From Leucoraja erinacea (taxonomy: Eukaryota): DNA of 64,000 nt. The stretch lies in the NCBI RefSeq assembly GCF_028641065.1, contig NC_073379.1, positions 58,962,001 to 59,026,000 on the forward strand, in the 5' to 3' direction. The notes under the pieces are model-generated. The model was not told the origin of the DNA. It made no database searches and saw only the letters and a list, made by a program, of their open reading frames with translations. The translations under genes and the position numbers were made by a program. Each line of letters starts with the position of its first letter. Position 1 is the stretch's first letter. Positions 12,638 to 63,390 of the stretch are shown here, in pieces.

Positions 12638-13322
12638 ACAAGATACAAGATACATTTATATGTCACATGTGCCAATTGGTACAGTGAAATGTGTTGTCAC
12701 CATACAGCCATACGAATAATAAAGATCACAGAACATGATAAACTTTAACACAGACATCCCCACACAGCGGAATCAAAATTTCCCACTGTGGGGGAAGGCT
12801 CCAAAATTCAGTCATCCTCCTCCGTTGCCCTCCGTTGTTCACCCGTGGTCGAGAGGCTCCGGAACCCGTCGCATTCGCCGCCACGGGCATCCCCATGTTC
12901 AGGCCCTCACGCCGGGATGATGGACTCCGACGTCGGAACGGGAGAACCACCTCAAAGGCTTGGACATCCGAATCGGCCACTTCCTACCGGAGTCCGCGGC
13001 TCCCAAAGTAGACAGGCTCTGCAGTGAATCCAGTGCTGCGCCGCCGCCGCTGAAGCTTGGTCCTGTCCCCGGCAGGAAAGGCCACGCCAATTCAGTTGGT
13101 AGGCCGCGAGGGGGAGGGGGGTCGAGGACGTGACTCGGAGAATAGTCACGTCCTCGCCAGGAAGTGACTGGGAAACAGTTTCCACCTTACCCTACCCCTC
13201 CCCCACATAGAAAAACTAAATAATCCTCCAAATTACACTTATAAAACTAAAAATAAAAAAAAAGATTGAAAAGCAGACATAGTGTAGGCAGAGGCTGCCA
13301 TCAATGTGGCGCCCCTAGTGGA
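12638..13322 (-). mobile_element. Non-autonomous retroposon with Rex1-like tail and conserved hairpin (copy E)
   Basis: Minus strand has a GC-rich body, a hairpin at 12758-12794, the tail atttcactgtaccaattggcacatgtgacatataaa and (tatcttg)n. Confidence 0.65.
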
Positions 13323-16196: not shown

Positions 16197-16239
16197 TAGA
16201 GATACACTGTTGCATGAGATCTAGTTAGGATCTCGTTAG

Positions 16240-18168
16240 GACGAAGGGCTTAATTAGGAAAGGAAAAATGGATTATGAAAGAAAACTAGCAGGGAACATA
16301 AAAACTGACTGCAAAAGTTTTTATAGATATGTGAAAAGAAAGAGATTAGTTAAAACAAATGTAGGTCCCTTGCAGTCAGAAACAGGTGAGTTGATCATGG
16401 GGAACCAGGATATGGCGGACCAATTGAATAACTACTTTGGTTCCGTCTTCACTAAGGAAGACATAAATGATCTGCCGGAAATAGCAGGGGCCCGCGGGTC
16501 AAAGGAGGTGGAGGAATTGAGTGAAATCCAGGTTAGTCGGGAAGTGGTGTTGGGTAAATTGAATGGATTAAAGGCCGATAAATCCCCAGGGCTAGATAGG
16601 CTGCATCCCAGAGTACTTAAGGAAGTAGCTCCTGAAATAGTGGATGCATTAGTAATAATCTTTCAAAACTCTTTAGATTCTGGAGTAGTTCCAGAGGATT
16701 GGCGGGTAGCAAACGTAACCCCACTTTTTAAGAAGGGAGGGAGAGAGAAAACGGGGAATTACAGACCAGTTAGTCTAACATCAGTAGTGGGGAAACTGCT
16801 AGAGTCAGTTATTAAAGATGGGATAGCAGCACATTTGGAAAGTGGTGAAATCATTGGACAAAGTCAGCATGGATTTACGAAAGGTAAATCATGTCTGACG
16901 AATCTTATAGAATTTTTCGAGGATGTAACTAGTAGCGTGGATAGGGAAGAACCAGTGGATGTGGTGTATCTGGACTTCCAGAAGGCTTTCGACAAGGTCC
17001 CACATAAGAGATTAGTATACAAACTTAAAGCACATGGCATTGGGGGTTCAGTATTAATGTGGATAGAGAACTGGCTGGCAAACAGGAAGCAAAGAGTAGG
17101 AGTAAACGGGTCCTTTTCACAATGGCAGGCAGTGACTAGTGGGGTACCGCAAGGCTCAGTACTGGGACCCCAGCTATTTACAATATATATTAATGATCTG
17201 GATGAGGGAATTGAAGGCAATATCTCAAAGTTTGCGGATGACACTAAGCTGGGGGGCAGTGTTAGGTGTGAGGAGGATGCTAGGAGACTGCAAGGTGACT
17301 TGGATAGGCTGGGTGAGTGGGCAAATGTTTGGCAGATGCAGTATAATGTGGATAAATGTGAGGTTATCCATTTTGGTGGCAAAAACGGGAAAGCAGATTA
17401 TTATCTAAATGGTGGCCGATTGGGAAAGGGGGAGATACAGCGAGACCTGGGTGTCATGGTACACCAGTCATTGAAGGTAGGCATGCAGGTGCAGCAGGCA
17501 GTAAAGAAAGCAAATGGTATGTTGGCTTTCATAGCAAGAGGATTTGAGTATAGGAGCAGGGAGGTTCTACTGCAGTTGTACAGGGTCTTGGTGAGACCAC
17601 ACCTGGAGTATTGCGTACAGTTTTGGTCTCCAAATCTGAGGAAGGACATTATTGCCATAGAGGGAGTGCAGAGAAGGTTCACCAGACTGATTCCTGGGAT
17701 GTCAGGACTGTCTTATGAAGAAAGACTGGATAGACTTGGTTTATACTCTCTAGAATTTAGGAGATTGAGAGGGGATCTTATAGAAACTTACAAAATTCTT
17801 GAGGGGTTGGACAGGCTAGATGCAGGAAGATTGTTCCCGATGTTGGGGAAGTCCAGGACAAGGGGTCACAGCTTAAGGATAAGGGGGAAATCCTTTAGAA
17901 CCGAGATGAGGAGAACGTTTTTCACACAGAGAGTGGTGAATCTCTGGAACTCTCTGCCACAGAGGGTAGTTGAGGCCAGTTCATTGGCTATATTTAAGAG
18001 GGAGTTAGATGTGGCCCTTGTGGCCAAGGGGATCAGAGGGTATGGAGAGAAGGCAGGTACGGGATACTGAGTTGGATGATCAGCCATGATCATATTGAAT
18101 GGCGGTGCAGGCTCGAAGGGCCGAATGGCCTACTCCTGCACCTAATTTCTATGTTTCTATGTTTCTAT
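16240..18168 (+). mobile_element. Young 5'-truncated CR1 LINE
   Basis: Intact RT ORF, CR1 3'UTR and (tttctatg)3 tail. Confidence 0.95.
16268..18070 (+). CDS. CR1 ORF2 C-terminal 600 aa (reverse transcriptase; endonuclease missing)
   Basis: [30 protein letters not shown] and KFADDTK motifs with no stops. Confidence 0.9.
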   Translation: MDYERKLAGNIKTDCKSFYRYVKRKRLVKTNVGPLQSETGELIMGNQDMADQLNNYFGSVFTKEDINDLPEIAGARGSKEVEELSEIQVSREVVLGKLNGLKADKSPGLDRLHPRVLKEVAPEIVDALVIIFQNSLDSGVVPEDWRVANVTPLFKKGGREKTGNYRPVSLTSVVGKLLESVIKDGIAAHLESGEIIGQSQHGFTKGKSCLTNLIEFFEDVTSSVDREEPVDVVYLDFQKAFDKVPHKRLVYKLKAHGIGGSVLMWIENWLANRKQRVGVNGSFSQWQAVTSGVPQGSVLGPQLFTIYINDLDEGIEGNISKFADDTKLGGSVRCEEDARRLQGDLDRLGEWANVWQMQYNVDKCEVIHFGGKNGKADYYLNGGRLGKGEIQRDLGVMVHQSLKVGMQVQQAVKKANGMLAFIARGFEYRSREVLLQLYRVLVRPHLEYCVQFWSPNLRKDIIAIEGVQRRFTRLIPGMSGLSYEERLDRLGLYSLEFRRLRGDLIETYKILEGLDRLDAGRLFPMLGKSRTRGHSLRIRGKSFRTEMRRTFFTQRVVNLWNSLPQRVVEASSLAIFKRELDVALVAKGIRGYGEKAGTGY

Positions 18169-23029: not shown

Positions 23030-23700
23030 TTAGATCAGATTAGATTAGATTAGATTCCTTTATTGTCATTTAGACCTTTCGGTCTGAACAAAATTATGTT
23101 GCCTGCAGTCATACACAGAACCAATAAAAACAAAACATACAATAAACACAAATTAAACATCCACCACAGTGAGTTCACCAAGCACATCCTCACTGTGATG
23201 GAGGCAAAGTCTTAGTCTCCGTCTCTTCCCTCCTTGTTCTCCCTCTGCGCTGAGGCGATCGATCCAGGCCGAAGATGCCGCCCTCCAGTCCAGCAGACCT
23301 CCATGGTGATGTCGCCGCCGCCAAAAGCCGGAACGCCGTCTCCGCTCCGAGACGGCCCGCCACAGCCTCAGCTCCAGGCCGCCGCCCCAGCTCCAGGTCC
23401 CGCAGTCTCTGCTCCGGGCCGCTGCCCCAGCTCCGGGTCCCGCAGTCTCCACTCCGGGCCACTGCCCCAGCTCCGGGTCCCGCAGTCTCCACTCCAGGTC
23501 CCGCAGTCTTCGCTCCAAGACGGCCCGCCACAGCATCAGCTCCAGGCTGCCGCCCCAGCTCCAGGTCGCCGCCCCAGCTCCAGGTCCCGCAGTCTCCGCT
23601 CCGGGCCGCTGCCCCAGCTCCGGGTCCCGCAGTCTCCGCTCCGGGTCCCACTGTCTCCGCTCCAGGCCGCCGCCGAAAGCCAGAACGCCGCACCAGCAAG
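23030..23700 (-). mobile_element. Non-autonomous retroposon with Rex1-like tail, hairpin and 36-bp minisatellite body (copy A)
   Basis: (tagat)n tail. 3' region homologous to 56910-57105. Hairpin at 23161-23201. Tandem units ccgctgccccagctccgggtcccgcagtctcc at about 23330-23670. Confidence 0.75.
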
Positions 23701-36811: not shown

Positions 36812-37123
36812 TTAAAGCCGCGGTCTCCGGTGGGGAAGAGCCGACTCTGGACTTACCTGGACTCGTACCTTGTCCTTACCATCTGGACGCCCGCAGCGGC
36901 GGCTGTGGAGTGTTGAGGTCCCGACCACGGGGGAAAATGGAGGAGAACTGGCCAAATTGTGTGCCTCCACTACAGTGATGAATGCTGTAGTGGATGTTTA
37001 TGTTACATTTTTATTGTGTTTTTGTGTGTGCTCTTTATCATTGTATCGCTGCTGACATATTCATTTCACTTGCACTTTTTGTGCAATGTGACAAATAAAC
37101 CGTATTGAATTATATTGTATTGA
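36812..37123 (+). mobile_element. Non-autonomous retroposon 3' part with hairpin and Rex1-like tail (copy D)
   Basis: Hairpin ccactacag/ctgtagtgg at 36967-36993. Tail atttcacttgcactttttgtgcaatgtgacaaataaa plus (tattg)n. Confidence 0.6.
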
Positions 37124-37148
37124 TAATTCCAGATGGTAAGGTTGGATC

Positions 37149-37160
37149 CAAGATGGCGGC
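37149..37160 (+). promoter_or_regulatory. YY1-consensus motif CAAGATGGCGGC overlapping the ORF start
   Basis: Exact YY1 consensus at position +17 from the TSD-defined 5' end. Confidence 0.4.
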
Positions 37161-40119
37161 GTGCACGGTCGCAGCGGCTCACGGCTCTCTGTCTCGATGC
37201 TCGTTCTTGTTGTTTGTGTACGTTGTGTTGTCCGTGTACGTCTTTGCTGTCGGTTCTGCGAGCACCCGCTACACCCGCTACACCCGACAGAACCTCGTGG
37301 ATATCGGTGATATCGGTGACCAGCGTCAGACTGCGGTTTCGGGTGTCTTCCATCGCAAGTATAACATCCCGGGCGACATAGCAAGACCACCGGGGTCCCC
37401 GTGGATTGTTGTCGGGTCTAGGAGGCGGCGCAGACGGAGGAGAGAGAGGAAGCAGAAGCGAGGCCGCAGGTCCGGTGCTTTGCTAAGGCTAAGGAATCGA
37501 CCACACAAGCCACCTCTACCGAGCCTGTATCTCTCCAACGCCAGATCCCTGGTTCACAAAATGGATGACCTGGAAGTACAACTCGCCGGAAATCAATATG
37601 TCCGCGACTGCTGTGTTATGATCATCACCGAAACCTGGCTTCACCCGGGGATACCTGATGCTAGCATGCAGCTAGCAGGACGCTTTCTACTCCGCGGGGA
37701 CAGGACTATGGACTCCCGTAAGAGCAGGGGAGGGGGTCTCTGTATATACGTGCATGAGAATTGGTGCAACAACGGGACAATCATAGACAATCATTGTTCC
37801 CCTGACCTCGAGTACATGTCTGTAAGATGCCGGCCTTTTTTTCTACCGAGAGAACTAACAGTCGTGATTGTCACGGCTGTGTATATTCCACCTGACGCCA
37901 ATGTAAACAAGGCGCTCTCTCTCCTGCTGAACACCATTAATGAACAGCAGCGGGATCACCCCGAAGGTGTTCACATAATCGCAGGGGACTTTAATAAGGC
38001 CAACTTGAAGACTGTACTGCCGAAATTCTACCAACATGTCAAGTGTTCTACTAGAGGGGTGAACACGCTGGATCATGTCTACACCAATATCAAGCACGCG
38101 TATAGAGCCATCCCCCTCCCCCAACTCGGCCAGTCAGATCATCTCTCCCTCCTGCTCTCTCCAGCCTACACCCCCCTCAGACACAGTGCCAGGCCCACCA
38201 TAAGATCTGTTACAACCTGGCCTGAAAATGCACTCTCCAATCTACAGGACTGCTTTACACAGACAAACTGGGACATATTCGAACACCAGGATCTGGAAAT
38301 TTTCACAGAATCGGTGCTGGACTATATCAAGTTCTGCATCGGAAATGTGACTGTAGACAAAAACATACGGGTTTTCCCAAACCAGAAACCCTGGATGTCC
38401 AGCCAGGTCCGCACACTCCTCAGAGCCCGCGATGCTGCCTTCAGGTCAGGTGACAGAGCACTGTACAGGGCTGCTCGAGCCGATCTGAAAAGTGGTATTA
38501 AAAAAGCCAAGGCGGACCATAAGAGGAGCATAGAGTCCCACTTGTCCAGCAATAATACACGGGAGGTATGGCGGGGCATACAAGACATTACCAACTACAG
38601 AGGCTGTGCCACAAAGTCAGAAGACCTGAGTGCGCCACTGGCAGAAAAGCTAAATGGCTTCTTCTCCCGCTTTGAAACATCACAACAGCAGCACTCACCT
38701 GCTACAGCCCTGTTTCCACCCTCACCTAGCTCCTGTACTACTCCACTCACTGTCAGGGAGCACGATGTCAGACGGGTGCTCCTGGCAGTGAACCCCAAGA
38801 AGGCTACCGGCCCAGATGGAGTACCTGGTAAGGTGCTCAAAGCGTGCGCCCACCAGCTCACTGCCATCTTCACCAGAATTTTCAACCTCTCCCTGGACCA
38901 GGCAGTTATTCCGTCCTGCCTAAAATCAGCCACAATCGTCCCTGTGCCGAAGAAGTCTCCCATCACCAGCCTTAATGACTACCGTCCTGTGGCCCTCACT
39001 CCGGTAATCACGAAGTGCTTCGAGAGATTGGTCCTCCAGCAAATCAAGGACTATCTACCACCAGACTTCGACCCCCACCAATTCGCCTATCGCCAAAACA
39101 GATCCACAGAAGACGCCATTACCGTAGCTCTCCACTCTGTGCTGAGCCATCTGGAGCAGGGGCAGAGCTACGTCCGGATGCTCTTTGTGGATTTTAGTTC
39201 AGCCTTTAATACAATCATTCCGGACATTCTCATTGGTAAACTGGTCACTCTCGGCCTCCCCACTCTCACATGTGCCTGGATAAAGGATTTCCTCACCAAC
39301 CGGCCCCAGACTGTGAGACTCGGCCCCCACCTCTCCTCCACTCGCAGGTTGAGTACCGGTTCCCCACAGGGCTGTGTGCTAAGCCCCCTCTTATACTGTC
39401 TCTACACCTACGACTGTAGTCCGGCCCACAACAACAACCGCATCGTCAAATTTGCTGACGACACTACTGTGGTCGGACTTATTTCAAAGGGAGACGAGGC
39501 AGCCTACAGAGAGGAAGTCCTGAAGTTGACAACCTGGTGCTCAGAAAACAATCTGGCTCTGAACACCAGGAAAACAAAAGAGCTCATTGTCGACTTCAGG
39601 AGGCACAGCACCGACTTAGCCCCCCTACACATCAACGACGAGTGTGTGGAGAGGGTCAACACCTTCCGGTTTCTCGGCGTCCATATCGCTGCTGATATCT
39701 CCTGGACGGACAACACGACAGCGGTCATCAAGAAGGCTCAGCAGCGGCTGCACTTCCTGAGGGTCCTCAGGAAGCACAACCTGGACTCTAACCTGCTGCT
39801 GACCTTCTACCGCTCGTCCATCGAGAGCCTACTGACATACTGCATTACAGCATGGTATGGCAGCTGCACCATGGCAGACAGGGAGAGGCTTCAGAGGGTA
39901 ACTAGGACAGCTCAGAGGATCATTGGCTGCCCTCTCCCCTCCCTGATGGACATCTACACCTCCCGCTGCCTTAGCAGGGCAATGAAGATCATCAAAGACA
40001 GCTCCCATCCTGCGTTTGGACTGTTCGACCTGCTGCCCACTGGAAGGCGCTATAGGTGCATCAAATCCAGGACAAATAGACTCAGGAATAGTTGCTTTCC
40101 GAGAATTATAACCTGTTAA
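37153..40119 (+). CDS. APE endonuclease + reverse transcriptase, 988 aa from the first in-frame ATG
   Basis: Endonuclease motifs NARSL, ITETWL, AVYIPP, AGDFN, LDHVY, SDH. RT motifs DYRPVALT, FVDFSSAFNT, PQGCVLSP, KFADDT. Confidence 0.95.
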   Translation: MAACTVAAAHGSLSRCSFLLFVYVVLSVYVFAVGSASTRYTRYTRQNLVDIGDIGDQRQTAVSGVFHRKYNIPGDIARPPGSPWIVVGSRRRRRRRRERKQKRGRRSGALLRLRNRPHKPPLPSLYLSNARSLVHKMDDLEVQLAGNQYVRDCCVMIITETWLHPGIPDASMQLAGRFLLRGDRTMDSRKSRGGGLCIYVHENWCNNGTIIDNHCSPDLEYMSVRCRPFFLPRELTVVIVTAVYIPPDANVNKALSLLLNTINEQQRDHPEGVHIIAGDFNKANLKTVLPKFYQHVKCSTRGVNTLDHVYTNIKHAYRAIPLPQLGQSDHLSLLLSPAYTPLRHSARPTIRSVTTWPENALSNLQDCFTQTNWDIFEHQDLEIFTESVLDYIKFCIGNVTVDKNIRVFPNQKPWMSSQVRTLLRARDAAFRSGDRALYRAARADLKSGIKKAKADHKRSIESHLSSNNTREVWRGIQDITNYRGCATKSEDLSAPLAEKLNGFFSRFETSQQQHSPATALFPPSPSSCTTPLTVREHDVRRVLLAVNPKKATGPDGVPGKVLKACAHQLTAIFTRIFNLSLDQAVIPSCLKSATIVPVPKKSPITSLNDYRPVALTPVITKCFERLVLQQIKDYLPPDFDPHQFAYRQNRSTEDAITVALHSVLSHLEQGQSYVRMLFVDFSSAFNTIIPDILIGKLVTLGLPTLTCAWIKDFLTNRPQTVRLGPHLSSTRRLSTGSPQGCVLSPLLYCLYTYDCSPAHNNNRIVKFADDTTVVGLISKGDEAAYREEVLKLTTWCSENNLALNTRKTKELIVDFRRHSTDLAPLHINDECVERVNTFRFLGVHIAADISWTDNTTAVIKKAQQRLHFLRVLRKHNLDSNLLLTFYRSSIESLLTYCITAWYGSCTMADRERLQRVTRTAQRIIGCPLPSLMDIYTSRCLSRAMKIIKDSSHPAFGLFDLLPTGRRYRCIKSRTNRLRNSCFPRIITC

Positions 40120-40879
40120 TTCTAATTCACACATGCACTGACTTCACTGCCCAACACGGACTTCCATCTGTATATATGTATATATATTGTGCAGCCGCAG
40201 AAATTGTGCACCTATTCCCGCCCCCATCCCCCCCCCCCCTTCTCCCTTCTGTTTTTTGTGCTAAATTGTATGTATGCACTGAGTACGAGCAGCTTTCATT
40301 TTCACTGTACATGTATAGTGACAATAAATGGCATATCTATCTAATTCCAGGATGTCCATATTAACATACATGCCCTGTGTGCAGACGCAGGGTGATGTTG
40401 GCCTAATTTTGGATATTGTTTTGGTCATCGTTTTTTTTAAAGTCTTGAAGCCTGAGAGTGAAAGAGCCTTCAATCCACTCGAAACATCCATGCACAGATT
40501 GGGCAAACAGAAAGGAACGAAACATATTTCTATGCAAAGTTCTGTTGCAAAAAGATCTTACTCATTTGCCAGAGGCAGAAGTGCTTGATTTCAAACCATG
40601 TCTGATCGAGATTGCAAGACAGTGTTTAGAGGATTGCGTGCTGATGCATTCCCTGTAACGTAGCAGTATAAAAATAAGGATTTAATTAAGAATTGATACA
40701 GGCTGAATTACTGCATGATTCATAATTTTTAGGTAATTGGTGTGTCAGAAATGTTCAAAGCTGCAACACCTGCAGGAGGTGGTTGTTGACCTGAAGCTCA
40801 CATTTATCTGTAGTACACACTATTATTCTACAATTCATAAGCAGTAACAATTGGGAGCGTCTGACTTTTCTCACCATTT

Positions 40880-45260: not shown

Positions 45261-45289
45261 ACCCTGGACCGCCCTGGACACCCTCACAT

Positions 45290-46563
45290 TTTTTGAGGAT
45301 GTGACAAATAAAATGGATGAAGGGATGGCAGTGGATGTAGTGTATCTAGACTTTCAGAAAGCCTTTGATAAGGTCCCGCACGGGAGACTGGTGACTAAAA
45401 TTTGAACACATGGTATTGGGGGTAGGGTGTTGACGTGGATAGAAAATTGGTTGGCAGACAGGAAGCAAAGAGTAGTAGTGAACGGGTCCTTTTCAGAATG
45501 GCAGGCAGTGGTGAGTGGAGTGCCGCGAGGCTCAGTGTTGGGGCCGCAACTGTTTACCATATATATTAATGATTTGGAAGAGGGAATTAGGAGCAACACT
45601 AGCAAGTTTGCGGACAACACAAAGCTGGGTGGTAGTGTGAACTGTGAAGAGGATATTAGGAGGTTGCAGGGTGACCTGGACAGGTTGAGTGAGTGGACAG
45701 ATGCCTGGCAGGTGCAGTATAATATTGATAAATGTGAGGTTATCCACTTCGGCGGCAAAAACAAAGGGGCAGGTTATTATCTCAATGGGGTTAGGTTAGG
45801 TAAGGGGGGGGGGGGGCGGGAGGTGCAGCGAGACCTGGGCGTCCTTGAACACTGGTCACTGAAAGTTGGCTTACAGGTACAGCAGGCAGTGAAGAAAGCT
45901 AATGGAATGTTGGCCTTCATAACAAGAGGATTTCAGTATAGGAGTAAAGAGGTTCTTCTGCAGTTGTATAGGGCTCTGGTGAGACCACGTCTGGAGTATT
46001 GTGTACAGTTTTCGTCTCCTAATTTGAGGAAGGACATCCTTGTGATTGAGGCAGTGCAGCGTAGGTTCACGAGATTGATCCCTGGGATGGCGGGACTGTC
46101 ATATAAGGAAAGATTAAAAAGACTAGGCTTGTATTCACTGGAGTTTAGAAGGATGAGGGGGATCTTATAGAAACATATAAAATTATAAAAGGACTGGACA
46201 AGCTAGATGCAGGAAAAATGTTCCCAATGTTGGGCGTGTCCAGAACCAGGGGCCACAGTCTTGGAATAAAAGGGAGGTCATTTTTCTCAACATTTGAATT
46301 GAGAAAAAACGTTTTCACCCAGAGAGTTGTGAATTTATGGAATTCCCTGCCACAGAGGGCAGTGGAGGCCAAGTTACTGGATGGATTTACGAGAGAGTTA
46401 GATAGAGCTCTAGGGGCTAGTGGAGTCACAGGATATGGGGAGAAGGCAGGCACGGGTTATTGATAGGGGACGATCAGCCATGATCACAATGAATGGCGGT
46501 GCTGGCTCGAAGGGCCGAATGACCTCCTCCTGCACCTAATTTCTATGTTTCTATGTTTCTATG
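45290..46563 (+). mobile_element. 5'-truncated CR1 with stop and frameshifts
   Basis: ORFs 45427-46170 and 46218-46463 are collinear with 16268-18070. (tttctatg)n tail. Confidence 0.95.
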
Positions 46564-52249: not shown

Positions 52250-53280
52250 TCATAAATTCATAAATCATAGTAGCAGAATGAGGCCATTTGGCCTATTAGA
52301 ATAGAATAGAATAGAATAGAATAGAATAGAATAGAATGCAATTTAATGTCATTCAAACCTAGGTTTGAACGAATAGAATGCAATTTATTGTCATTCAAAC
52401 CTAGGTTTGAACGAAATATCATTTCTACAGTTTTTTACATTACAAAACAATCCAAGACCCACACTTAACACAGTTTACATAAACATCCATCACAGTGAGT
52501 CTCCAACATCTCCTCACTGTGATGGAAGGCAAAGTCTTTATCTGCGTTGCGGAGCTTGCGGAGCTCGGAAAAGCGGTCTCCCACCAGGGACCTGCGAGCT
52601 CCCGATGTTCCTGTCCACCGGGTCTGTGGCCGGTGCCTCCGAACTCCAAAAGTCGGGTCGCAGCCGCACGCCACCACAGCTCTTCCCGCTCCGAAGTTGG
52701 CCAGCTCTGCGATGTCAGTTCCGCAGGCTCTGCAACTGGAGCCCCCAGGTTAGTCCCAGCCGGAGGTCGCCGCCGGCTCCAGGATGTTAGGCCCAATGAC
52801 ATCCGAGACCCGACAGGGAATAGTCCTATTGAGTCTACTCCGCCATTCAATTATGGTTGATTTATTTCTCCCTCTCAACTCCAATTTCCTCCCTTCTTCT
52901 GGGAATCGTTGACATCCTTACTAAGCAAGAACTTGTCAATCTCTGCTTTTAAAGTACCCAATGATTTGACCTCCACAGCCATTTGCGGCAATTAATTCAA
53001 CAGATTCACCACCATCTGTCTAAAGAAATTCCCCCCCCCCCCCGATCTGCTTTCTAAAAGTACATTCGTTAATTCTGAGGCAGTGCCCCCTGATCTAGAC
53101 TCTCCCAATAGTGGAAAAATCATCTCCCCATACACTCAATCCAGGCCTTTCACTATTCGGTAAGTTTCAATGATGTCCCCCTCATCCTTCTAAACTCCAG
53201 CAAGTGCAAGCCAAGAGCTATCAAATGCTCCTCGTAGGTTAACCCAAACATCCCCAGGATCATTCTGGTAAAACTCTCCC
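52250..53280 (-). mobile_element. CR1 3' part interrupted by the retroposon at 52298-52824
   Basis: CR1 3'UTR is continuous across the insertion: aggccatttggcctatt|gagtctactccgccattcaa. Confidence 0.8.
52298..52824 (-). mobile_element. Non-autonomous retroposon with hairpin and duplicated Rex1-like tail (copy C)
   Basis: TSD CCTATT (52292-52297 and 52825-52830), (agaat)n tail, hairpin at 52487-52525. Confidence 0.8.
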
Positions 53281-56345: not shown

Positions 56346-57131
56346 TATGGCGGCGCTGCCTTAGCAGCTGCAGCTCGCCTGCAGTCTGTTTGTTTTTTCT
56401 TTTTTTTTGTTTGTTCTTTTGTCCTGTTTTAGTAAATTTTTGGTTTTATTTATTTTTTTATGTTGCGTTTGGGTGTGGGGGGAACGTGTTTTTGGTCTCT
56501 TCCTTCGGGGGGATGCGACTTCTCTTGTCGTATTCCCCGTGTCCGTCTCCGTCTGTGCTGAGGCCTAAATGCGGAGCTGGCGGCCTTGGAGCTGGGGCAG
56601 CATTCCTGCGGCAACATCGGAGCTGCGGTGGCAGTGGCGACCCGGCATCGGAGCTGTGGCGTTCCGGCGGCAGCGGCAACCCGACAACGGAGCTGTGGCG
56701 TTCCGGCGGCAGCGGCAGCGGCAGCGGCAACCGGACAACGGAGCTGTGGCATTCTGGTGGCAGCGGCGACACAACATCGGAGGAGTGGCATTCGGCCACG
56801 GGGCGACCTGACATCAGAGCTGTGGCGTTCTGGCGGCAGTGGCGACCCGACATCGGAGGATCAGCCACGGGCCCGGTGGACGACAACGTCTGGAGCTCAC
56901 AGGTCGTCTCGGAGCAGAGGGAGAACAAGGAGGGAAGAGACAAGGACTTTAAGACTTTTGCCTCCATCACAGTGAGGTGGTGCCTGGTGAACTCACTGTG
57001 GTGGATGTTAAATTTGTGTTTATTGTCTGTTTTTGTCATTTTTATTGTATGTATGACTGCAAGGCAACAAAATTTCATTCAGAAAGGTCTGAATGACAAT
57101 AAAGGCTACTTTACTTTTACTTTACTTTACT
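56346..57131 (+). mobile_element. Apparently full-length non-autonomous retroposon (copy B) with 39-bp repeats
   Basis: Head atggcggcgc, units ggagctgtggcgttccggcggcagcggcaacccgacaac, hairpin at 56964-57004, tail tttcattcagaaaggtctgaatgacaataaa plus (tttac)n. Candidate TSD TTATAA at 56340-56345 and 57132-57137. Confidence 0.75.
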
Positions 57132-57319
57132 TTATAAACTGGGTTTGTAATATTTATTTTGCATTGGGATTAATCCCTGCAATGAGACCAAACAAATGGA
57201 GTGATGTTCAGTGAAGAGAAAGAAGTTGAAAAATGAGAGGATGTTGGTGAAGAACTGGGATTGCATTTACTGGAATCATGGTCAATTGAACTGATGTTAA
57301 TAATTTCTGCCAGAAAGTG

Positions 57320-61616: not shown

Positions 61617-62235
61617 TCTATATTACTAAAAGTAAGATCGTGACCGCTTTTGACTCACTGCGGTGTGATTTCCGAGAGAACGCCTCCACTTACGGTCGCC
61701 ATTTTTGGCCACCTCGTTCATAGCCCCCCTCCGCCAGACTGGACTGGAGGATTTTTCCCATCAATGAAAAATCAGAGAGATATTAATGTTTTTTTTTTAA
61801 ATCACCATTCTCTCTGCTGCTGCTGGTGGGAGGGGGGAGGGACTATAAAACCCAGAAGTGGTGTGCCTCACTCAGTCTCTCCAAGATGGAGGAAGCGAGA
61901 GGGTCACATCTCTCTGAGCTCTGAATAACACTGAACACATGTCTACTCAACTGTGAGTGCCTTTAATGTGGTTTCAAAATGAAAATATGGTTGCTTTAAA
62001 ATGCTGCACTGCAAAAAAATGGCTGTTGTTGGCGGTGATAACTGCTTTGAAAGGCTGCACTGCAAAAACAAAATGGCTGTTGTTGGTGATGGTAACTGCT
62101 TTGAAAGGCTGCACTACAAAAAAAATGGCTGTTGGTGGTGGTGGTAACTGCTTTGAAAGACTGCACGGCAAAACAAATGGTTGTTGTTGGTGGTGGTAAC
62201 TGCTTTTAAAAGGCTGCACTGCAAAAAAAAATGGC
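61617..62235 (+). mobile_element. Helitron 5' portion with about 48-bp tandem repeats
   Basis: Begins TCTATATTACTAAAAGT directly after host A, at an A|T site of the CR1 with no TSD. About five aaatggctgttgttggtggtggtaactgctttgaaaggctgcactgc units at 61985-62235. Confidence 0.7.
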
Positions 62236-63390
62236 TGTAGTATACCTGGACCTTCAGAAAGAATTTGATAAGGACACACATAGGAGATTAGTGGGAAACA
62301 TTAGGGCACGTGGTGTTGGGGTGCTGACCTGGATAGAAAATTGGTTGGCTGACAGGAAACAAAGAGTAGGGATTATTGGGTCCCTTTCAGAATGGCAGGC
62401 TGTGACTAGAGTGGTACCGCAAGGCTCGGTGCTGGGACCACAGCTATTTACAATATACATCAATGATTTAGATGAAGGGATTCAAAGTAACATTAACACA
62501 TTTAAAGATGACACAAAGCTGGGTGAGTGTGAACTGTGAGGAGGATGCTATGAGAATTCAGGGTGACTTGGACAGATTGGGTGAGTTGGCAGACGCATGG
62601 CAGATGCAGTTTAATGAAGATAAATGTGAGGTTTTCCACTTTGGTAGCAAAAACAGGATGGCAGATTATTACATAAATGGTGTCAAGTTGGGAAAAGAGG
62701 AATTTGTCAATGAAGGTAAGCATGCAGGTACAGCAGGCAGTGAAGAAAGCGAATGGCATGTTGGCCTTCATAACAAGAGGAGTTGAGTAAAGGAGCAAAG
62801 AGGTCCTTCTGCAGGTGTATAGGGCCCTAGTGAGACCACACCTGGTGTATTGTGTGCAGTTTTGGTCCCCTAATTTGAGGAAGGATATTCTTGCTATTGA
62901 GGGAGTGCAGCATAGGTTTACAAGGTTAATTCCCGGGATGGCGGGATTGTCATATGCTGAGAGAATGGAGTGGCTGGGTTTGTATACTCTGGAGTTTAGA
63001 AGGATGAGAGTGGATCATATTGAAACATATAAGATTATTAAAAGTTTGGACAAGCTAGAGCAGTGGTTGTTAACCTTTTTTGGCACCAGTGCGCGCATAC
63101 ACGAACAAATACTGTATGTGGTATGCACTTTTGTTAGGTTCCTAAACATGGCCTCAACAAATTGATATGTTATTTGTATCCCCTTCATGACCCCCAGCAA
63201 ATTGATATGATATATGTACTTTCAAGAGAGAGCTAGCTAGGGCTCTGAAAGATAGCGGAGTCAGTGGATATGGGGAGTAGGCAGGAATGGGATACTGATG
63301 GGGGATGATCAGCCATGATCACATTGAATGGCTCGAAGGGCCGAATGGCCTACTCCTGCACCTATTGTCTATTGTCTATTGTCTATTGTG
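62232..63390 (+). mobile_element. 5'-truncated CR1 with frameshifts, interrupted at 63061
   Basis: [37 protein letters not shown]. (tattgtc)n tail. Confidence 0.9.
63061..63219 (+). mobile_element. hAT/Charlie-like MITE left end
   Basis: CAGTGGTTGTTAACCTTTTT terminus following AGCTAGAG, a CTAG-centred target. Confidence 0.55.

Follow-up and report, generated by a model that had tools for sequence, protein, structure and literature searches.

A superfamily of protein-free retroposons in Leucoraja erinacea with a covarying 5′ hairpin and tails of two LINE clades

We analysed 64,000 nucleotides of Leucoraja erinacea DNA (NC_073379.1, 58,962,001 to 59,026,000, forward strand; hereafter the window), in which five GC-rich repeats lie alongside an autonomous Rex1-type LINE. 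LINE fragments with an RT domain, which we take to be CR1-like, also occur at 16229-18070, 45288-46563 and 62232-63063. A near-full-length repeat of family A occupies 56347..57134 (+) and runs from its head to a microsatellite tail; the same head is reached by 19 of 30 family copies, 18 of those being 553-815 nt long. The head (56347..56390, +) starts with a presumably YY1-like word and resembles the first ~35 nt of Rex1 (0/2000 shuffles for the family A copy). A first-pass annotation of the window had assigned a head matching Rex1 (atggcggcg/ATGGCGGCG) to a copy it designated B; the ATGGCGGCG head sits in the copy at 56346 (at 56347). Downstream, a U-rich tract, a G-run and TCNCTTCC precede a covarying hairpin, H2 (56508..56538, +), which is followed by GGCCTA. 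H2, present here and within 13091-13188, had been overlooked in the annotation, which flagged only a second hairpin, H3 (56960..57008, +), kept in most families and deleted in family N. A Rex1-type terminal stem-loop plus TGACAATAAA (57073..57103, +) follows, with family A matching Rex1 in layout and weakly in sequence (19/300 shuffles equal).

The other four repeats are variously complete. The family E copy (12638..13321, −) reaches its 5′ head and contains both H2 (within 13091-13188) and H3 (12754-12799). A relative of A at 23030..23700 (−) is 84% identical to A across the last 200 nt and has its own tandem repeats; the family D copy lies at 36812..37123 (+); and a copy of the young family C (52298..52824, −) is truncated inside H2, with an internal deletion of ~183 nt and its tail stem-loop in duplicate. 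The 5′ head is reached by the copies at 56346 and 12638 only, the remaining three being 5′-truncated. Each of the five ends in GCC(T)TCC, a hairpin, GGATG, a U-rich spacer, a stem-loop, TGACA(A)(A)TAAA and a microsatellite, and the predicted folds of their last 150 nt are more stable than those of shuffles (z −2.6 to −3.3). The common 3′ layout described in the annotation was thus found at all five places, but its description of the bodies as unrelated was wrong, since bodies align between families: body sequence of the copy at 56346 recurs in that at 52298 (71% over 100 nt, E 2e-8), and the family D representative aligns with that of family E in the 5′ part (71% identity, 154 nt, E 2e-13).

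The Rex1-type LINE (37149..40343, +) has a 988-aa ORF (37153-40119) with RT and ALKBH8_N domains and a tail stem-loop at 40299-40328. The tail behind this ORF has the same layout as those of the five repeats, and the LINE carries neither H2 nor H3. It represents one class of candidate partner. The Rex1 label is backed by the peptide FSSAFNT, encoded at nt 39193, which the available text of PMC3728117 gives as the product of the published Rex1 primer RTX1-F1. The intact Rex1 begins 26 nt past the family D copy (37123-37149), and a 9-nt word is found on both of its sides (37123-37149 and 40341-40350), offset from the Rex1 5′ end.

Searches of the 2.19-Gb genome itself place the five repeats in one retroposon superfamily of 0.55-0.95 kb elements with no common coding frame. 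Four end types gave 3815, 2995, 3120 and 2335 first-look candidates, which are not copy numbers. Across the genome, 16,887 sites match the H3 pattern exactly and 0 match its reversed control; metagenome contigs contain 0 matches. The group comprises more than 16,000 protein-free copies and, with GC-rich copies in the tens of thousands, makes up a notable share of this genome's annotation. Alignments of 30 copies for each of families A, D, E and C define a common layout: a head with a small stem, a U-rich tract, a G-run, GAAAC, TCNCTTCC, H2 and GGCCTA make up the 5′ part, and a GC-rich repeat body, a purine run, H3, a spacer, a LINE tail and a microsatellite the 3′ part. Defined heads are reached in A by 19/30, in D by 17/30, in E by 16/30 and in C by 17/30 copies, mostly 550-950 nt long, and beyond these fixed heads the flanks are unique. 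Copies of family C are 99-100% identical across their last 164 nt. The superfamily is dispersed, with 5′ truncation and microsatellite tails as in LINE-mobilised retroposons. Target-site duplications of at least 7 nt show no excess (5/69 full-length copies versus 74/1126 control pairings); short or absent duplications are usual for Rex1, L2 and CR1.

No ATG ORF is common to the family representatives, and the bodies lack RT similarity. In family A only, a frame starting at an ATG after H2 is open to the tail in 8/16 copies and contains 39-nt and 45-nt repeat units; a conserved peptide was rejected as not being common to families, and a 305-aa stop-to-stop frame has no Pfam match. Rfam gathering and E-value scans gave nothing relevant within the elements, and similarity or complementarity to 18S rRNA, tested with 18S plus 1.5 kb downstream, stayed at chance level (best E 0.08). 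The extreme 5′ words vary by family: CAAGATGGCGG in A, CCGGAAGTG in N and CCACTAGGGGCG in E, which we take to be YY1-like, ETS-like and CTCF-like (one base short), respectively. Elsewhere, at G000:C4:52.13-52.37 Mb, we noted actin-family genes clustered in tandem, with a single long coding exon.

H2 is the better-supported of the two structures. A structure-blind alignment of 27 rows is 91.4% paired, with double changes at 8 of 11 pairs; its covariation score was reached by 0/500 shuffles and its conservative pair count by 28/500. The tree-aware test used flank-derived trees for both hairpins and counted changes that fall on the same branch; for H2 it gave 11 co-changes versus 3.3 (P=0.001). 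An H2 profile has 40 matches in 1.244 Mb of unselected DNA, spread over many families; at least 3 of these matches are fragments lying in antisense within another element. Elements were gathered largely through this profile, so that the apparent universality of H2 may reflect the collection, and single copies without it occur (L305). GC-rich, partly palindromic pieces of the superfamily were also seen inside another element at L218(−) 1401, L143(+) 9276 and L272(+) 8279. The host element, which in L218 and L272 ends in what we take to be a Tigger/MER2-like terminal repeat, is perhaps a DNA-transposon MITE that captured them.

The H3 stem is conserved, but its covariation is thin. Its structure-blind alignment (25 rows) has 96.8% of cells paired and 6 of 14 pairs doubly changed; no shuffle reached the covariation score and 7/500 reached the conservative pair count. 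Once relatedness is counted, same-branch co-changes number 4 against 1.9 expected (about four events, P=0.11), so that the covarying hairpin of the annotation stands as a conserved structure but not as a significantly covarying one. Similarly, the arms CCACTACAG/CTGTAGTGG given there for D do occur in the copy at 36812, but are a variant of that copy; its family mostly has CCACCACAG/CTGTGGTGG. G-U cells outnumber A-C cells by 32:5 in H3 and 28:13 in H2, where cells are not independent events, and this excess favours the sense RNA strand.

These data bear on whether the hairpins act as RNA at all. H3, and perhaps H2, might have no selected RNA role, persisting by descent while inverted repeats correct each other at the DNA level; the few H3 co-changes, the tolerated loss of H3 in family N and the window D copy, doubly changed relative to its own family, would agree with this. 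We consider such an explanation doubtful, though a serious one, as fixed G-U pairs and the 32:5 excess point to the sense RNA strand, the H3 stems are conserved while their loops vary from 4 to over 20 nt, and the H2 co-changes are significant.

Family N is informative about what H3 does. H3 is absent in 20/20 of its copies, whose 3′ ends are 96% alike (median), and the purine tract joins the spacer directly. Its 5′ part is 77.5% like A over 240 nt and retains H2. Among 2515 candidates, 40 scored matches at 93-100% lie on many contigs. H3 is therefore not needed for spread, since a family without it is dispersed. This natural deletion answers part of the question, raised in the first-pass annotation, of how the elements fare with and without the hairpin.

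The tails connect the superfamily to more than one LINE clade. Of 11 retained tails, 9 match Rex1-linked tails, with different families matching different Rex1 families; these tails (D, E, N, C, L121, L176, L269, L138 and L139) beat shuffles at 0-2/300. Families A and F have no close partner tail among the Rex1-linked tails, 19/300 and 44/300 shuffles being as good. A D-like family, 72-75% like D over the body, carries another tail (421 junction matches) and has H2 in 7/12 loci, and E-like relatives (L288, L127 and L330) carry a related non-Rex1 tail. This non-Rex1 type also follows RT ORFs of a clade that stands apart from the Rex1 and CR1-like clades with support 100/99, in a tree that left out 28 CR1-like rows. 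From motifs we take this clade to be L2; a literature text check of the L2 motif label matched nothing, and Atlas gave only 'RT domain'. The same tail type terminates a tRNA-headed SINE, found at L278 6104-6316(−) and L051. The tails of this SINE and of the D-like family are 87-89% identical, and the SINE is a possible tail donor.

Two apparent swaps were discarded. L127 was rejected as a Rex1 tail swap, since a short stub of Rex1 sits there within an element that bears the other tail, and this twelfth tail was dropped. The tail at L122 belongs to a separate short element found alone elsewhere and was not counted. That element, of ~200-270 nt, has a CAAGATGGC head, a U-rich body and an (ATT)n tail, presumably L2-type (L122 300-390 and 5852-5953; L069 1395-1491; L176 6573-6671), and is another headless non-autonomous type.

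The annotation had proposed that the repeats are mobilised by Rex1. Their Rex1-type tails agree with this, but the group also has tails of another LINE clade, and H3 is not Rex1-specific because it is kept in families with that other tail. It is very unlikely, then, that H3 is an essential signal for hijacking Rex1. Its retention in many families and its almost fully paired, G-U-biased stem are what such a signal might look like, but family N deleted H3 and still spread, and the hairpin persists where the tail belongs to another LINE.

The promoter evidence separates the group from classical SINEs, which have a small-RNA head and Pol III boxes. The annotation saw no tRNA A/B boxes and took the elements to be of non-tRNA type; we agree, with no tRNA gene found by ARAGORN and a negative Rfam search. 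No family has A and B boxes together, with 2 mismatches allowed; at the same stringency loose single boxes occur, an A-box in 19/19 copies of A and 7/10 of N and a B-box in 14/17 of C. A T5 run lies 47-60 nt (medians) past the head in 79/79 full-length copies. T runs stop Pol III transcription. It is highly improbable that these are standard Pol III SINEs whose tRNA head has decayed: the loose boxes might be read as remains of that head, but both boxes never coincide in a family, every full-length copy has the T5 run within ~60 nt, a control tRNA-SINE has both boxes and no such run, ARAGORN and Rfam are negative, and the A and C heads align with Rex1.

A poly(A) library from another organism gave 7742 reads on a family C copy, nearly all of them from relatives of it, with 74 at 99% or more. 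Strand bias is ~4- to 35-fold per bin and flips where a repeat of opposite orientation begins (the L101 junction); the reads fit sense transcripts provided that this library, whose strand is uncalibrated, follows the usual dUTP convention. At L101 750-857 another repeat, apparently a group member, stands head-to-head with the C copy. The poly(A) reads have no sharp start at the head, 431 of them continuing upstream into mixed sequence, and in two single-cell runs opposite-strand reads are primed at the U-rich tract. In view of the missing sharp start, the upstream run-on, the uncalibrated strand and the opposite-strand single-cell reads, we only infer self-driven Pol II transcription of the elements.

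Against one Rex1 head, head similarity was equalled by 0 of 2000 shuffles for A, 1 for C, 213 for D, 410 for E and 87 for N, and is thus significant in A and C but not in D, E and N. In comparisons with two Rex1 5′ ends, the bodies gave no alignment to the window Rex1 and a best E of 0.015 to the leader of a second Rex1 family; an origin of the body in that leader was rejected, the similarity consisting of short words in one copy and a 20-copy profile not being significant. The term bipartite, used in the annotation, holds for ~35 nt of the head in families A and C, but a Rex1 source could not be traced for most of the element, and in these comparisons LINE 5′ and 3′ parts do not account for the whole. 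The elements are, as annotated, non-autonomous with Rex1-type tails, given the lack of a common ORF and the tail matches.

The copies are also not remnants of Rex1 itself. An H3-like fold is present in 0/35 Rex1-linked 3′ ends (4 of the 35 being false tail picks), which bears out the earlier remark that H3 is not seen in the Rex1 3′ UTR. At 30 unselected H3 loci, taken in order along contig 1, Rex1 RT lies within 1.5 kb upstream in 0/30 and H2 lies upstream at E<0.001 in 14; CR1-like fragments occur in 11, ending well upstream, in a check that used Rex1 and CR1-like RT queries only. The annotation had named, as an outcome that would overturn it, a hairpin belonging to the 3′ UTR of an autonomous LINE; these loci speak against that outcome. 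Because H3 is missing from all 35 Rex1 ends and Rex1 RT from upstream of all 30 H3 loci, the window copies are not truncated Rex1. That they are 5′-truncated pieces of any autonomous LINE with the hairpin in its 3′ UTR is scarcely tenable and largely refuted by fixed 5′ heads with unique flanks, in addition to the 14 loci with H2 upstream, even though three of the five window copies are 5′-truncated, the tails are LINE-like and the genome was examined as a sample.

As in a SINE superfamily, a conserved body is joined here to the tails of more than one LINE clade, one of which we take from its motifs to be L2. We favour, with a probability of roughly 0.7, a group that is likely transcribed by Pol II, resembles a SINE superfamily and exchanges LINE tails. 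Pol II RNA would be made from the head, and the terminal stem-loop would serve as a handle bound in trans by a matching LINE protein, after which target-primed reverse transcription would yield truncated or full copies with microsatellite tails. In the UnaL2/UnaSINE model the LINE RT engages the RNA through a borrowed 3′ stem-loop, and it is from this model that we derive trans-binding and target-primed reverse transcription here. Now and then, as in SINE superfamilies, template switching or recombination would replace one tail with another. The working core is probably the 5′ domain with H2, which would keep an untranslated Pol II RNA stable and accessible to partner proteins; H3 probably serves as an accessory fold, aiding stability or freeing the tail, and is unnecessary for spread. 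More tentatively, the group may be an undescribed Pol II 'SINE superfamily' in which the Rex1 head and H2 domain form a trans substrate for any LINE whose tail has been captured, with switches between Rex1-type and L2-type tails on more than one occasion. If so, the deletion and tail-swap families make the access of non-autonomous RNA to LINE proteins directly testable. Family N without H3 and the D-like families with either tail are natural controls for asking which RNA parts capture a LINE RT.

A description of the group was not found in the literature searched, a scope outside which lie most subscription papers, Dfam and Repbase; nor is it described in the accessible portions of PMC6274825, PMC9004415 and PMC5499810. 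The long (1.0-1.4 kb), abundant, non-coding CoeG-SINEs of the coelacanth, also a fish, are a possible relative, similar by description alone, as no CoeG-SINE sequence was found in the available text or five supplements of PMC4255032. Like UnaSINE with UnaL2, the skate elements have a borrowed 3′ stem-loop, but UnaSINE has a tRNA head, a CORE body and a single partner. The available part of PMC3747384 lists that pair and one Rex1-SINE pair, SINE2-5_NV with Rex1-24_NV, which is likewise non-autonomous with a Rex1 tail, but tRNA-headed and from a sea anemone.

Two classes of element come closest. According to the accessible text of PMC5786205, the ORF-less bipartite non-autonomous LINEs (RIME, NARTc, Bov-A and RTESINE) resemble the skate group in having no common ORF, a LINE-like 5′ head, a LINE 3′ end and presumed Pol II transcription; there Kojima (2018) sources such elements only from RTE, Ingi, Vingi and R2, a bias left unexplained. 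The skate group differs from these in its Rex1 partner type, in a traceable head of only ~35 nt, in 500-800 nt with no LINE source found and in tails from two clades (compared with PMC5786205 as far as available). As described in the available parts of PMC7245038 and PMC5499810, the SINE superfamilies CORE, Deu, Meta and UCON3 pair a conserved body with the tails of more than one LINE clade in concurrent families, as here, but are set apart by Pol III promoters and by heads of tRNA, 5S or 7SL type; the skate elements are longer and have neither. The former source, as far as it is accessible, also reports that SINEs with small-RNA heads exchange their tails, and mentions SINEs of birds whose GC-rich heads have no known origin. 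The skate group hence resembles both a bipartite non-autonomous LINE and a tail-swapping SINE superfamily and departs from each in one defining feature, because most of its body has no LINE source found and it has no Pol III head. If a group with a Rex1 head and no Pol III promoter indeed exchanges its tails among LINE clades, it would unite bipartite LINE derivatives and SINE superfamilies.
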